Positions 13,624 to 17,960 of a stretch of 64,000 bases of DNA are shown here, in pieces; the stretch's first letter is position 1; each line of letters opens with the position of its first letter. This DNA is from Escherichia phage SholemSchwarzbard. The notes under the pieces were generated by a model. It had not been told where the DNA came from. It did not search any database and saw only the letters and a list, made by a program, of their open reading frames with translations. The DNA lies in the sequence record PP925840.1, one strand, 5' to 3'. Made by a program: the position numbers and the translations under genes.

Positions 13624-14013
13624 TTAATCCAAAATATTATTAGGCATTGGTTGAACACTCACAAGTTCTTTAAAGAACTCAGTAGAGTCAGGCAATTTAA
13701 CCATTTCCGGAGCATGCTTACTGAATTTATGTTTACATTGACGGCATTTATATTCAAGCTCTGGTTTACGCCAGTTAATCAATTGAACTTGTTCAGTACC
13801 GCATTCAGGACAATTAGGAACGTTTTTAGAAGCCCTTTCGCGACGTTCAACCATAACCATAATAGCATCCCAGGCTGGAGGTTTAAAATCTAAATCATCA
13901 CAACCATGAATCTTTCCACGCATTTCCATATCATCTTCCTCACCAGCCATAATAATTTTAATTAAACTGGAATTACTTGAAGCTGCAATGTCTTCTAATA
14001 AACGCTTTTTCAT
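13624..14013 (-). CDS. zinc-ribbon protein (nrdC.2 position)
   Basis: 129 aa with CPECG...CRQC cysteine pairs. Confidence 0.55.
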
Positions 14014-14939
14014 TTCAATACCTCAATAGCATTACGTAAACCATTTGCTTTTGCATTAAGAGCTTTTAACAATTTGGTGTGTTCTGCAATTTGGGCTTCA
14101 ACTTCAATCAAACGGGCATTGAGATATTCACGTTCTTCACTCAGATTATCAACCTTTTCTACTTTAGGCTCTTTTACAACTGTCTTATATGTATTAGGGT
14201 TCTTCAGTTTAATTAGAATGCGTGAACTGTATAACATTGAACCATTATCTTCGGTTTCGTCATACATTTCTACTACGTCCATGATTTTTAACATCATGCG
14301 GAGTTTATAAGATAACGAACGAATAGTTTTGTTGTGCTTATTAATTTCTCTAGAGTTCATGGTGCCGAGATTACGTGAGTAATAATAAGGAACCTGGATA
14401 TTAATTAATACTGATGAACCACCTGGCTTGTGTGTTACTTCATCAGCAATAACCCAATCCTTAACATGAACTGTATTTGTACGGTCATCGCCCGCGGTAA
14501 ATAGTTTGCGAGCATGCTTAAAAAGCATATTCACTTGGTCATTGAATTGACAAGCAAATTTATCAGCAAATTTAGTTTCAGGAATGGTAGATAACCAATC
14601 AGCCAAATGGGTCTTTTTAACATCGTTAACAATAGTAAATTCAACCAAATCAGTTATAGATGTCTCAGATTTAATAAAGCTAGGCTTCATAAAGTTTTTA
14701 ATGTTATCGCGAGCTACAGTAGAAGATAACATACGAGAACGTTTAAACCATTGAAGCAAATTGCCCAACGAATGAGAATAAGCGTTTTGAGTATCTTTAC
14801 AGATATGATTTTCCTGGCCAACATATTGAAGGAAATCACGAAGAATATTATTGATTACTGCTCTGTGTCCGATCTGATAATTACGGTGTTTAATAATAAG
14901 ACTGTCAAAATAATCAATATAATGTTTACGAGTTTTCAT
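14010..14939 (-). CDS. hypothetical protein with C-terminal coiled coil (nrdC.3 position)
   Basis: 309 aa; C-terminus [44 protein letters not shown]. Confidence 0.6.
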   Translation of the reverse strand: MKTRKHYIDYFDSLIIKHRNYQIGHRAVINNILRDFLQYVGQENHICKDTQNAYSHSLGNLLQWFKRSRMLSSTVARDNIKNFMKPSFIKSETSITDLVEFTIVNDVKKTHLADWLSTIPETKFADKFACQFNDQVNMLFKHARKLFTAGDDRTNTVHVKDWVIADEVTHKPGGSSVLINIQVPYYYSRNLGTMNSREINKHNKTIRSLSYKLRMMLKIMDVVEMYDETEDNGSMLYSSRILIKLKNPNTYKTVVKEPKVEKVDNLSEEREYLNARLIEVEAQIAEHTKLLKALNAKANGLRNAIEVLK

Positions 14940-14991
14940 GTTCTTCTCACTTGGTTAATGATTTATACTCCGAGCCATCCTTGGCTTTAAA

Positions 14992-16023
14992 TTACTTAAT
15001 TAACTGTAAAGCTTGTTCAAGACGATCAAGACGATTAACGGATTCTTCCCAAATCTTTTTAGCACTTTCATATTCTTTTTCTGCTTTATTTTTAATTTCT
15101 AAAGCTTCTTTATAAGCTTTTTCTAGTGCAATAACTTCTGGACGAATTTCTATTGGCTCAGGAGAATCATCGAGCCAATCCATCAATTCTTCAAGTGTGG
15201 TTTCTTCTTTAGGAGCATTCACAATTTCTTCACATTTCTTCTGATGAATTTCTTTATCTGTTAGTGAATAAGCACATTTAACTTCACGAAGACTAATTAC
15301 AATTTTATATCCTTCCCAACCGCATGCATTTGTAAAAGGATATGTATGAACACTTTTTACTGTTTTCATACAATGTAATACAGCCTTTAATTGATGCATT
15401 ATAGTATTCGAAATTGAGAAAAATTTATTAATATTCTTTTGATTAATTTCTGGTGTAAAAAATCCATAATTGATATAAATAGCTACTTTATTTTTATCAA
15501 GATCATATTCCTTCACTGTAATCATATCAGCAGCTAAAGGATGAATTTGACGATAATCACCATAACATAATTTAGAAGCTGATTTTAAAATTTGCTTCTT
15601 GAAAAGTCTGAAATTACTAATCCAACGACGAGTAAAAATATTCTCAGGGTCTTCTTTTATGCGAAGATGGTAAGTATTAACATCACCAAACCATTTATAA
15701 CCTACTGTATCTTTAGTTCGCTTAATTTCCGTACCAAACTTACTAATAATATCTTTATTAACTAAATATGAAAGAAGACGAGATCCTTTAAAAGTTATCT
15801 TAATATCATCTTTATCTAGTCGGCTAGAAATTTCACGAACTTCATGAATAAATCGTGCTGAAGCAACAACTTCCGGATCTATTTTATTAAGCCATTCATT
15901 AATGATTAGAAAGATAACACCTTTGCCTATTAAAGGCTTAACTCTATCGTCAATAGTATTATTAAATGATCTGATATATTCGTTACGAGTCATAATAATC
16001 TCCTCAGTAGAAAGTAAGAACAT
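14992..16023 (-). CDS. hypothetical protein with C-terminal coiled coil (nrdC.4 position)
   Basis: 343 aa; C-terminal heptad-rich tail ending LDRLEQALQLIK. Confidence 0.6.
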   Translation of the reverse strand: MFLLSTEEIIMTRNEYIRSFNNTIDDRVKPLIGKGVIFLIINEWLNKIDPEVVASARFIHEVREISSRLDKDDIKITFKGSRLLSYLVNKDIISKFGTEIKRTKDTVGYKWFGDVNTYHLRIKEDPENIFTRRWISNFRLFKKQILKSASKLCYGDYRQIHPLAADMITVKEYDLDKNKVAIYINYGFFTPEINQKNINKFFSISNTIMHQLKAVLHCMKTVKSVHTYPFTNACGWEGYKIVISLREVKCAYSLTDKEIHQKKCEEIVNAPKEETTLEELMDWLDDSPEPIEIRPEVIALEKAYKEALEIKNKAEKEYESAKKIWEESVNRLDRLEQALQLIK

Positions 16024-16050
16024 TATACCACATCCTTGTGGTAAAGTAAA

Positions 16051-17043
16051 CTACTTCAGTGCACTAAGTGCATTCTTTAATTTTGAATGCTGCTTCATAA
16101 GATTGCTGACTTTTGCTTGTGCTTTTTCTAATGTATTTTTAGCTTCTAAGACTTCATTAGTAGCTTTAGTAAGTTCATCATCAACAGCTTTGATAGATTT
16201 CTCAATAGCATCTGCATGCCATTTTTCTACTGGTTTAAGTTCTTCATTTTTAATAGTACCAATATTACCACTAAATTTCCATAGATCTTTGTTATGAAAT
16301 TTAGAATCATTTGATGAAAAACTAGTTGTGTATTTAATTTCCGGGTTTTTCTGAGGCACAACTTCGTCCTTTCTCAAAAAATCATATTTAAATGAAACGA
16401 TCATATCAAGTTCATACGTTGTTGTATGTTCCCAATTTCGCTCAAAACGAGGTAAAATCTTAGATTGAACAGCAGCAACAACATCCATATACTTAAATGC
16501 TTCTGTCAACTGTGATTTAAGACATTCACAAATTGAAAGAGAATTTTTAGTATTAGGCTTAAAGCTGATTCGCGCAGTTCGATTATTTTCTTTAGATGGT
16601 CTTACTTCCATTTGAAGAGTATAACCATCAAATTTCAGATTCTTTAAGTTAATATCAGAACCTTTTAATCGACTAGCCGTAGACAAAATTTGCTTTAATT
16701 GTCTACGGAATAGAGCAATAAATCTCCATTCAATACGATAATGATTTGGATTGAAAAATCCAGATGATAAATCGACCTTACTTTGACCAACGCCTTGAAC
16801 AAATAGAGGATTTTTATAATCAATAGTTTTACAGAAATCGGTGAGCTGCTCACGAGCAGTCATTTGTGTAATATATCCCGCTTTACTAAAATGACGTAAC
16901 CATTCACTGCTATTCATATACTTAAAGTGAATATCACGATTAACTTTATCAGGGTCTAAATTATTTTGGCACAAAAATGTCATAACATCACGAGTATAGC
17001 TGGCATTACGAACCATATCTTCAATTTGAGAACGAGTTTTCAT
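16051..17043 (-). CDS. hypothetical protein with C-terminal coiled coil (nrdC.5 position)
   Basis: 330 aa; tail ending KLKNALSALK. Confidence 0.6.
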   Translation of the reverse strand: MKTRSQIEDMVRNASYTRDVMTFLCQNNLDPDKVNRDIHFKYMNSSEWLRHFSKAGYITQMTAREQLTDFCKTIDYKNPLFVQGVGQSKVDLSSGFFNPNHYRIEWRFIALFRRQLKQILSTASRLKGSDINLKNLKFDGYTLQMEVRPSKENNRTARISFKPNTKNSLSICECLKSQLTEAFKYMDVVAAVQSKILPRFERNWEHTTTYELDMIVSFKYDFLRKDEVVPQKNPEIKYTTSFSSNDSKFHNKDLWKFSGNIGTIKNEELKPVEKWHADAIEKSIKAVDDELTKATNEVLEAKNTLEKAQAKVSNLMKQHSKLKNALSALK

Positions 17044-17051
17044 GGTGTTCC

Positions 17052-17960
17052 TTAAGATTTAAGTAAATCAACAATTTTAATTAATTTTTCACGCTCAGAT
17101 TTAGCTTTACTACTCAATCCAGATAGTCTGAAAATTTCATCGTCATACTGTTGAATAGAAATATTCAGCTCTTCAATTTGCTTATTAAAATAATCAATTT
17201 GTTCAGAATGTTTTTCGTTACTACGAACTGGTACAGGTTTTGTAGGCAATTTAGTTGAACTGGATTCATCCGGGCGATAAATTAAAATACAACTTGAACC
17301 AATTGGACATTTTGCACCAGATGAATATTCTAATGTTCCGACTTCTTTTAAAACTTCAAAAGCTAAACAGAGATGATGCCCCATATTAACATAATCTGTA
17401 GAGCGAGCTCTGATGTAATAATCATCTCCGCGAATACTAAATTTAAAGCATTTAAGGTCTTCTGTATTATTGGTCTTAAAAATCATTTGTTTATCTAGAC
17501 CTTTAGCTAATCGAGCGCCTAATGCTAATAATCGTCGTTGATTTTCCCACAAATCCGCGATCATTTGGTCAAATGATAATTTCGGCATTAGTCGACCATA
17601 AAGGTCATATCCTTTATTATAATTGCGAAGAATTTCACTCGCGTTAATACGAGACAATGCTCCAATTTTATTAAGGGCTTTCATAATGCGATTAGATAAA
17701 CTCATTCCAGACCCGTTTGTTCGCTGTAAATGTTTTTCTAATCCAAATCCAATATCAACTTTAAATTTATCTAAAATTTCAGCATGAACATCTCTGTCAA
17801 TAACATTCAAATCCAGAGTTGGGTTAAATCTATGAAAAAATTTATCTGGCTCTCCACGACGAAGTACAGTCCATTCATTCAATTTTTTATTAACTAAAGA
17901 TTTAATTACTGCATTGACATTATTAATTACTACTGACATATTTTCCTCACTCAATTTCAA
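17052..17960 (-). CDS. hypothetical protein with C-terminal coiled coil (nrdC.6 position)
   Basis: 302 aa; tail ending EREKLIKIVDLLKS. Confidence 0.6.
   Translation of the reverse strand: MKLSEENMSVVINNVNAVIKSLVNKKLNEWTVLRRGEPDKFFHRFNPTLDLNVIDRDVHAEILDKFKVDIGFGLEKHLQRTNGSGMSLSNRIMKALNKIGALSRINASEILRNYNKGYDLYGRLMPKLSFDQMIADLWENQRRLLALGARLAKGLDKQMIFKTNNTEDLKCFKFSIRGDDYYIRARSTDYVNMGHHLCLAFEVLKEVGTLEYSSGAKCPIGSSCILIYRPDESSSTKLPTKPVPVRSNEKHSEQIDYFNKQIEELNISIQQYDDEIFRLSGLSSKAKSEREKLIKIVDLLKS

Follow-up and report, generated by a model that had tools for sequence, protein, structure and literature searches.

The 64,000-nucleotide stretch of Escherichia phage SholemSchwarzbard (PP925840.1) analysed here, which we call the window, contains four consecutive open reading frames (ORFs) on the minus strand, at positions 14010-17960, that, judging by family matches and gene order, are the known T4-type early genes nrdC.3, nrdC.4, nrdC.5 and nrdC.6. 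The best overall explanation for this quartet, to which we give a probability of roughly 0.65, is an array of diverged whole-length paralogs, in which nrdC.5 counteracts the host defence protein Dsr1 and the other members are host-range or counter-defence factors. The genes have long been catalogued as T4 ORFs; what appears to be new is their deep paralogy and their single-copy ancestor, both apparently unrecorded in the libraries searched.

Paralogy and copy number of the nrdC.3-6 genes

The window has a guanine-plus-cytosine content of ~35% and is a T4-like phage genome segment of the Tequatrovirus type. In a megablast search, the 4.2 kb around the quartet matched 659 phage records, nearly all Tequatrovirus, with a top full-length identity of 92%, and the surrounding 25 kb is 96-97% identical to the best phage records. 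In the gene order of the annotated relative KMB39, nrdC (glutaredoxin), nrdC.1 and nrdC.2 lie downstream of the quartet and nrdC.7 to nrdC.11 upstream.

The product of nrdC.3 (14010..14939, 309 amino acids (aa)), which is syntenic with the annotated nrdC.3 of KMB39, and that of nrdC.4 (14992..15993, 333 aa) belong to PF26897 (Phage_T4_Y04OP) and to phrog_1435, which was matched over the full length of NrdC.3 (residues 2-309 to profile 1-334, E-value (E) 1.3e-115) and by residues 11-343 of the longer NrdC.4 ORF (profile 1-334, E 8.5e-151). PF26897 is borne by P0059, 100% identical to a window protein of the NrdC.3/4 family, and also by the 333 aa NrdC.4 homologs. NrdC.5 (16051..17043, 330 aa), encoded by the ortholog of the T4 anti-Dsr1 gene, matches DUF7235 (PF23882) with residues 1-330 to profile 1-307 (E 1.9e-103, 346.6 bits for a cutoff of 30) and phrog_2351 (E 3.2e-146), and NrdC.6 (17052..17939, 295 aa) is a member of phrog_2257 (residues 8-302 to profile 1-303, E 3.3e-153) and of PF26899 (Phage_T4_Y05B), which is borne by P0125 (100% identical, 98% of the NrdC.6 query) and by the 295-296 aa homologs. 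In Pfam and PHROGs, NrdC.3 and NrdC.4 already form a single family, and NrdC.5 and NrdC.6 each stand apart.

The ORF lengths of 309, 343, 330 and 302 aa given by a first-pass annotation of this DNA are right, and so are the four C-termini that it quoted (NAIEVLK, ALQLIK, NALSALK and IVDLLKS). Two of the genes are predicted to start inside these ORFs. The mechanical nrdC.4 ORF extends to 16023 (343 aa), and the most likely start is the ATG at 15993 (333 aa, protein MTRNEY...), because a Shine-Dalgarno sequence, GAGGAG, stands before it, the upstream ATG falls inside the -10 element of a promoter-like site, and the PHROG match and most homologs begin at residue 11. For nrdC.6 the start is probably the ATG at 17939 (295 aa), with the TTG at 17960 unused, since a Shine-Dalgarno sequence, GAGG, precedes it, the homologs have 295-296 aa and the phrog_2257 match runs from residue 8.

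NrdC.3 and NrdC.4 are related by BLASTP (E 4e-4, residues 65-284 and 78-297, z = 9 against shuffles), and the similarity lies in the body of the proteins, not in the tail. A profile of the NrdC.3/4 family, searched against 1.84 billion representatives, gave 10 hits, all of them from this family or fragments of it, and did not reach NrdC.5 and NrdC.6 directly. Among these hits was P0236 (315 aa, from Klebsiella Marfavirus phages), which matched NrdC.4 (9e-7, residues 65-315), the C-terminus of NrdC.5 (5e-6) and NrdC.3 (1e-3). P0236 is one of the homologs found in single copy in other T4-like genera, and a profile built from seven of them, run on a set of 374 proteins (of which ~130 were unrelated ORFs of the window and of related loci), recovered NrdC.6 (best E 2e-10), NrdC.5 (9e-10), NrdC.4 (6e-8) and NrdC.3 (7e-4), the best unrelated ORF being at 0.39. 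The alignments of this profile to NrdC.6 and NrdC.4 span the globular region.

The links remain when the last 70 residues are cut from every sequence. With hhalign, such tail-less alignments connected NrdC.3 with NrdC.4 (E 5e-15, 210 colinear columns), NrdC.4 with the single-copy family (7e-9, 186 columns), with NrdC.5 (2e-6, 166 columns) and with NrdC.6 (1.5e-3, 196 columns), and the single-copy family with NrdC.6 (4e-6, 72 columns) and NrdC.5 (3e-4, 79 columns), whereas reversed sequences, used as controls, gave E-values of 0.2-0.8 and scores of 10-17, compared with 30-103 for the real pairs. Full-length hhalign joined NrdC.3 to NrdC.5 (4e-7, 230 colinear columns), and HMMER profiles built from the globular parts yielded the same network of links. 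With shallow alignments, made up of close homologs, hhalign had given 4e-4, 0.025 and 0.13, and the matches became stronger after the addition of Gaprivervirus, Mosigvirus and single-copy sequences. An off-register match between NrdC.3 and NrdC.5 (17-104 to 137-216, E 7e-7) was discarded as an artefact of a fusion protein, P0058, in the NrdC.3 alignment.

Since the tail-less matches are colinear and stand above the reversed controls, the four proteins are best regarded as whole-length paralogs that diverged to ~20% identity and, by these profile comparisons, NrdC.3-6 and their single-copy homologs are one superfamily, for which T4-like phages are the only source detected to date. The N-terminal 250 residues had been described in the first-pass annotation as unrelated, with divergent N-terminal domains set on a common module; neither statement survives the comparison, as NrdC.3 and NrdC.4 are alike in the body and the tail-less profiles connect all four globular parts. 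In the joint alignment, common motifs (K-x-G-x-[ILM]-[ST]...A-[RK]..[LI]..[FY], F......[IL]L..[AG][SA][KR]L and QL..A[FL]..M) recur at matching places from one end of the protein to the other, and the AlphaFold2 (AF2) models of NrdC.5 and NrdC.6 have their secondary-structure elements in the same order. In the common architecture, the N-terminal region is helical and is followed by a small alpha/beta region, then by a variable linker and finally by a charged C-terminal helix of 45-60 residues.

The AF2 model of NrdC.6 (predicted local distance difference test (pLDDT) score 78, predicted template modelling score 0.66) was compared with the BFVD using Foldseek and, beyond orthologs, it matched Straboviridae proteins of 300-374 aa with 12-17% identity, E-values of 5e-7 to 1e-3, a probability of 1.0 and template modelling scores of 0.18-0.52. 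These proteins come from Enterobacter IME523, Pectobacterium PM2, Acinetobacter Acj9, Acj61 and fHyAci03, Erwinia Cronus, Klebsiella Mineola and Yersinia fHe-Yen9-01, and the IME523 hit (335 aa) has the length of the IME523 single-copy protein, which is linked by sequence to NrdC.4, NrdC.5 and NrdC.3. No solved structure resembled the family, either by sequence profile in the PDB or by fold, where the matches were generic helical hairpins. Several candidate matches were rejected: PDB profile matches with designed helical repeat proteins lacked any stretch above threshold, matches to the PHL domain, BipA_C and PgrA were sub-threshold, and residues 30-86 of NrdC.3 (14682-14852) resembled an XerD/integrase N-terminal SAM-like domain far below the curated cutoffs of Pfam (PF02899, E 0.077, 13.7 bits for 22.3) and NCBIfam (NF001399, E 0.0013, 18 bits for 279). 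The top BFVD hit was P0124 of Shigella phage Sf25, a NrdC.6 homolog that has 378 aa instead of 295 and is 98% identical in the shared part; its extra length comes from an extension at the N- or C-terminus or from fusion with a neighbour.

The duplication proposed in the first-pass annotation finds support in gene order across T4-like genera. Kanagawavirus, Mosugukvirus and Marfavirus have one copy, directly upstream of nrdC.2, as seen in P0236 (Marfavirus), in the Kanagawavirus phages IME523, PEi20 and Kosakonia 305 and in the Mosugukvirus PM2, and this slot is that of nrdC.3 in Tequatrovirus. Three copies are present in Gaprivervirus (VR20 and SP18, order 6-5-4) and in Mosigvirus (MM02, order 6-5-3, without NrdC.4), and four in Tequatrovirus (order 6-5-4-3), so that one syntenic slot holds a series of one, three and four tandem copies. 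We read the ancestral state as one gene directly upstream of nrdC.2, from which tandem duplication produced the arrays of three or four copies.

Individual copies are also broken in some phages. In Shigella phage SP18 (L012:3456-4360) the NrdC.5 homolog is split and annotated as two ORFs (170 and 125 aa), and may be a pseudogene. A deletion variant in T4-like metagenome contigs (L013:3570-4900 and L014:1931-3261) has an ORF of 115 aa followed by the 299 aa P0058, in which residues 145-258 of NrdC.5 are joined to residues ~137-309 of NrdC.3, nrdC.4 being gone. P0058 is found on at least four contigs and, since its junction lies at non-homologous positions, it looks like the product of illegitimate deletion and gene decay.

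Conservation of the C-terminal helices

All four proteins end in a charged helical segment: of the last 50 residues, 34-44% are charged and no more than one is a proline or glycine. On the minus strand, these segments are encoded at 14013..14144 in nrdC.3 (approximately residues 266-309, ending in LRNAIEVLK), 14995..15144 in nrdC.4 (approximately residues 294-343 of the long ORF, ending in LEQALQLIK), 16054..16233 in nrdC.5 (residues 271-330) and 17055..17216 in nrdC.6. The AF2 model of NrdC.5 has a helix at 271-329 with a local pLDDT of 57-90, and in the monomer model of NrdC.6 the tail (242-294) folds back as a helical hairpin formed by residues 242-271 and 277-294. Heptads were assessed strictly, by counting consecutive a and d positions occupied by a hydrophobic residue or alanine, with 75-residue windows of the other window ORFs as background (mean 4.7, 95th percentile 7, maximum 10). 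The count for NrdC.5, whose heptad pattern is unbroken over residues 277-315, is 12 and exceeds the background maximum; that for NrdC.6 is 8 and exceeds the 95th percentile; NrdC.3 (6) and NrdC.4 (5) are within the background.

Local alignment of the last 60 residues gave z-scores of only -0.6 to 3.3 against shuffles, the value for NrdC.3 and NrdC.4 being -0.6. In the pairwise alignment that the first-pass annotation had proposed as a check, the one significant match, that of these two proteins, lies in the body and not in the tail. Nevertheless, a terminal motif, L-x-x-A/V-[ILV]-x-x-[LI]-K, is common to all four tails. The last 13 residues anchored at the C-terminus (EREKLIKIVDLLK among the four) have a sum-of-pairs score of 108, compared with -41 +/- 22 for random tail windows and maxima of 45 for shuffled tails and 80 for heptad-shifted windows, a comparison for which the 13-residue length and the trimming of the final serine of NrdC.6 were chosen post hoc.

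A tail-only HMMER profile of the single-copy homologs, for which the best unrelated protein is at E 0.6, found NrdC.5 (3e-10), NrdC.6 (9e-5) and NrdC.3 (1e-3), and did not find the NrdC.4 tail (0.08). With hhalign, the single-copy tail matched those of NrdC.5 (2e-12), NrdC.3 (2e-5) and NrdC.6 (1.3e-4), and the NrdC.3 tail matched that of NrdC.5 (1e-4). The NrdC.4 tail is the best conserved part of the protein inside its own family and, the terminal motif aside, showed nothing above background with the tail-only profiles of any other family. Mean pairwise identity within the orthologous families is 0.44-0.73 for the C-terminal 55 residues and 0.34-0.70 for the rest. NrdC.8 (18410-18937, 175 aa), which also ends in a charged helix (...ETYKKQRAERQNTLRKFEERLKTVLA), was not matched by any family profile (E 9.6) and thus serves as a natural negative control. 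We consider that the resemblance of the tails exceeds what composition would give, although it is weak and comes largely from the terminal motif. Of the shared heptad-like charged helix of about 40-50 residues described in the first-pass annotation, the charge and the terminal motif stand; the heptads are ordinary in NrdC.3 and NrdC.4, and the NrdC.4 tail matches no other tail above background.

Function of nrdC.5, allelic divergence and alternative explanations

The only member of the family with a described function is nrdC.5. In the passages of Srikant et al. (eLife 2022, PMC9391042) on which we rely, a T4 clone with deletions including nrdC.5 no longer plates on Escherichia coli ECOR17 and disruption of dsr1 in ECOR17 restores plating, cloned dsr1 shields MG1655 from the same T4 clone, and T4 nrdC.5 is an early, non-essential gene that counteracts Dsr1, rescue being reported with nrdC.5; T4 clones with large deletions that remove nrdC.5 still grow. 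The same passages describe Dsr1 as carrying a sirtuin (SIR2) domain, probably depleting nicotinamide adenine dinucleotide (NAD+); the paralogs nrdC.3, nrdC.4 and nrdC.6 do not appear in them. The tetratricopeptide repeat sensor of Dsr1 recognises phage major capsid proteins (2026 preprint, PMC12803255). Our literature searches for the NrdC.5 mechanism, anti-Dsr1, DUF7235, nrdC.3, nrdC.4 and nrdC.6 returned only the 2022 eLife paper and passing mentions. The window gene (16051-17043) agrees with that of T4 NrdC.5 (Y05A, 39.7 kDa; PF23882) in its position between nrdC.6 and nrdC.4 and in its full-length DUF7235, with 82-84% aa identity; it differs in 16% of the residues and by indels in the linker.

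Being syntenic and 84% identical, the window nrdC.5 would counter Dsr1 as the T4 allele does. NrdC.5, made early, may bind Dsr1 ahead of the late-made trigger and block either triggering or NAD+ consumption, by analogy with DSAD1, the anti-DSR2 protein of SPbeta-like Bacillus phages, which neutralises a defence-associated sirtuin NADase by direct binding (PMC11087589, PMC10973363, PMC10981675). DSAD1 was not among the structure matches of the family in the sequence-profile and fold searches, so any likeness to it would be one of mode of action only. NrdC.3, NrdC.4 and NrdC.6 may be host-range or counter-defence factors directed at other immunity proteins or variants, an extension suggested by common descent, by accessory behaviour (loss, splitting, fusion and allele turnover) and by the location in a non-essential early gene block. 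The globular part would then provide specificity, and the conserved C-terminal helix would mediate self-association or a common contact. The specificity of NrdC.5 itself is not transferable to paralogs as remote as ~20% identity. More tentatively, we propose as a possibility that the array works as a counter-defence battery of paralogs. NrdC.3, NrdC.4 and NrdC.6 would then have separate targets, each neutralising another host immunity protein or another variant of Dsr1-like sensors, with the hypervariable body giving specificity and the C-terminal helix a shared mechanism. The T4 dmd-tifA-adfA 'anti-TA island', as presented in the passages of the eLife paper, is likewise early, non-essential, variable, clustered and lost in laboratory deletions that cost host range; its genes are mutually unrelated, whereas the nrdC.3-6 cluster is made of paralogs of one gene.

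Three of the four genes are the most variable of their neighbourhood. Compared with T4, the window NrdC.3, although of the same family over its full length (PF26897, phrog_1435), has only 60% aa identity (synonymous divergence (dS) 1.06, ratio of non-synonymous to synonymous divergence (dN/dS) 0.29), NrdC.4, of the same family, has 78% (dS 0.43, dN/dS 0.29) and NrdC.5 84% (dS 0.38, dN/dS 0.25), whereas most flanking genes have 97-100% and NrdC, NrdC.1, NrdC.6, NrdC.9, NrdC.10 and NrdC.11 have 98-100% (dS 0.04-0.27, dN/dS 0.06 or less). Since dS and dN are both raised, this points to old alleles moved by recombination rather than to a simple increase in rate. The identity classes of NrdC.3 in 653 phage records are discrete and bimodal: 95-99% (299 records), 60-80% (197) and below 60% (95). 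For the NrdC.4 allele, no match above 81% aa identity was found in the 553 matching records among 50,697 GenBank phage records, and an identical protein is encoded on a 13.4 kb ENA metagenome contig; this allele looks like an imported cassette, because its flanks nrdC.2 and nrdC.6 are 98-99% identical to known phages. NrdC.6, syntenic with its T4 counterpart (PF26899, phrog_2257), is the most widely present of the four, with 741 records, and its identity is 95% or more in 479 of these. From these comparisons, nrdC.3, nrdC.4 and nrdC.5 exist within Tequatrovirus, as we interpret them, as old divergent alleles exchanged by recombination and sometimes deleted or broken, and nrdC.6 is conserved.

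Other explanations must be weighed against this reading. The first-pass annotation had likened the genes to receptor or target-recognition families, and a modular family of that kind, with a common C-terminal coiled-coil oligomerisation module and unrelated N-terminal domains acquired by domain swapping, would account for the lack of N-terminal similarity in five of the six pairs in pairwise comparison, for the terminal motif in all four proteins, for tails slightly better conserved than bodies within families and for a NrdC.5 that is tied to the single-copy family chiefly by its tail (2e-12, and 3e-4 for the globular part). We consider it quite unlikely, as the globular-only profiles are colinear and far above the reversed controls, the motifs hold equivalent positions over the whole length, NrdC.3 and NrdC.4 are alike in the body and not in the tail, and the NrdC.5 and NrdC.6 models share their secondary-structure order; in addition, the passages of PMC9391042 describe early cytoplasmic products and not virion proteins, T4 nrdC.5 being an intracellular early gene countering Dsr1, which does not suit the receptor analogy. 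Independence of the globular links from the tails, together with the single syntenic slot of all members, makes it very improbable that the tails are alike merely as charged amphipathic helices and that the ORFs other than nrdC.3 and nrdC.4 are unrelated neighbours. The low z-scores of the last 60 residues (3.3 at most, and -0.6 for the proven pair NrdC.3 and NrdC.4), the failure of the NrdC.3, NrdC.4 and NrdC.6 tail profiles to find other window families above background and the score of 0.006 of an unrelated window coiled coil with the NrdC.5 tail profile would be expected in that case; the anchored motif above all control maxima (45-80), the hits of the single-copy tail profile to three of the tails against a background of 0.6 and the unmatched charged helix of NrdC.8 would not.

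It is also unlikely, in our view, although less so, that the family has a housekeeping or regulatory role in early infection, such as nucleic-acid or host-protein binding, of which the anti-Dsr1 activity would be a side effect or a single specialisation. T4 clones lacking nrdC.5 grow (PMC9391042, in the passages cited), some natural phages have lost copies or carry split or fused ones, the local variability of nrdC.3, nrdC.4 and nrdC.5 is the usual pattern of accessory host-range genes, and the SAM-like DNA-binding matches of NrdC.3, which could be taken as a hint of such a role, are far under the curated cutoffs. The presence of NrdC.6 in more records (741) than the others and its strong conservation speak for that role, as does the dN/dS below 0.3 of all four genes. 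The last two points also weigh against the paralog array of host-range and counter-defence factors that we prefer: NrdC.6, with 98% aa identity to T4 and a dN/dS of 0.06, is as conserved as the housekeeping neighbours and fits an arms-race role poorly, and values well below 1 give no direct sign of positive selection. Further points count against it. By BLASTP and phmmer, no pair among the four proteins other than NrdC.3 and NrdC.4 is significant; the direct hhalign link between NrdC.5 and NrdC.6 reaches only E 0.01-0.03 and that between NrdC.3 and NrdC.6 is not significant, so that the superfamily depends on transitive links, which pass through NrdC.4 and the single-copy family. The profiles have little depth (effective number of sequences about 1.5-2.3), the E-values are relative to local databases of ~400 proteins, and the AF2 model of NrdC.5 is poor (pLDDT 46), which limits the identification of its fold with that of NrdC.6. 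The anti-Dsr1 result concerns the T4 allele and comes from one paper, without a mechanism, and the literature searched gave no function for NrdC.3, NrdC.4 or NrdC.6.

Neighbouring features and significance of the array

A promoter-like site, GTTTAC(T)-17-TGGTATAAT, is present on the minus strand at 16022..16050, in the spacer between nrdC.5 and nrdC.4, with 10 of 12 consensus matches plus a TG. By its intergenic position and its resemblance to T4 early promoters, it is a putative early promoter; a promoter scan of the region found 29 sites for 27.9 expected from shuffles, with no excess overall. The minus-strand spacers between nrdC.4 and nrdC.3 (14962-14991) and between nrdC.5 and nrdC.4 (16022-16050) both contain a -35-like element, the shared word CAAGGATG and then TATAAA or TATAAT, the last base of the -10 element in the nrdC.3 spacer breaking the rule of the scan. 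An early promoter may have been part of the duplication unit.

Downstream of the quartet, nrdC.2 (13624-14013, 129 aa) encodes a CPEC...CRQC zinc-ribbon-like motif and is 99% identical to KMB39 and only 77% to T4, so that the variable zone begins in nrdC.2; the T4 GT7 gene is annotated as shorter (315 bp). Two more minus-strand ORFs, at 11652-11828 (58 aa) and 21494-21940 (148 aa), are ~35% identical to their best KMB39 or T4 counterparts, their neighbours being above 95%, which suggests further replaced cassettes of the early region.

It is a common expectation that the accessory early genes of T4 act against host defences, and a specialist will not find such a role surprising. Three uncharacterised ORFs, nrdC.3, nrdC.4 and nrdC.6, become concrete candidates for counter-defence or host-range factors, and the naturally occurring range from one copy to three and four, in which many alleles exist, is suited to the study of how new specificities are gained. 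If the array is indeed a battery of counter-defence proteins, the nrdC.3, nrdC.4 and nrdC.5 alleles of Tequatrovirus would be fitted to hosts that differ in their immunity repertoires, and the family would be an anti-defence protein family diversifying by tandem duplication and allele exchange. In phage therapy with T4-like phages, the allelic state at the nrdC.3-6 locus could mark host range.

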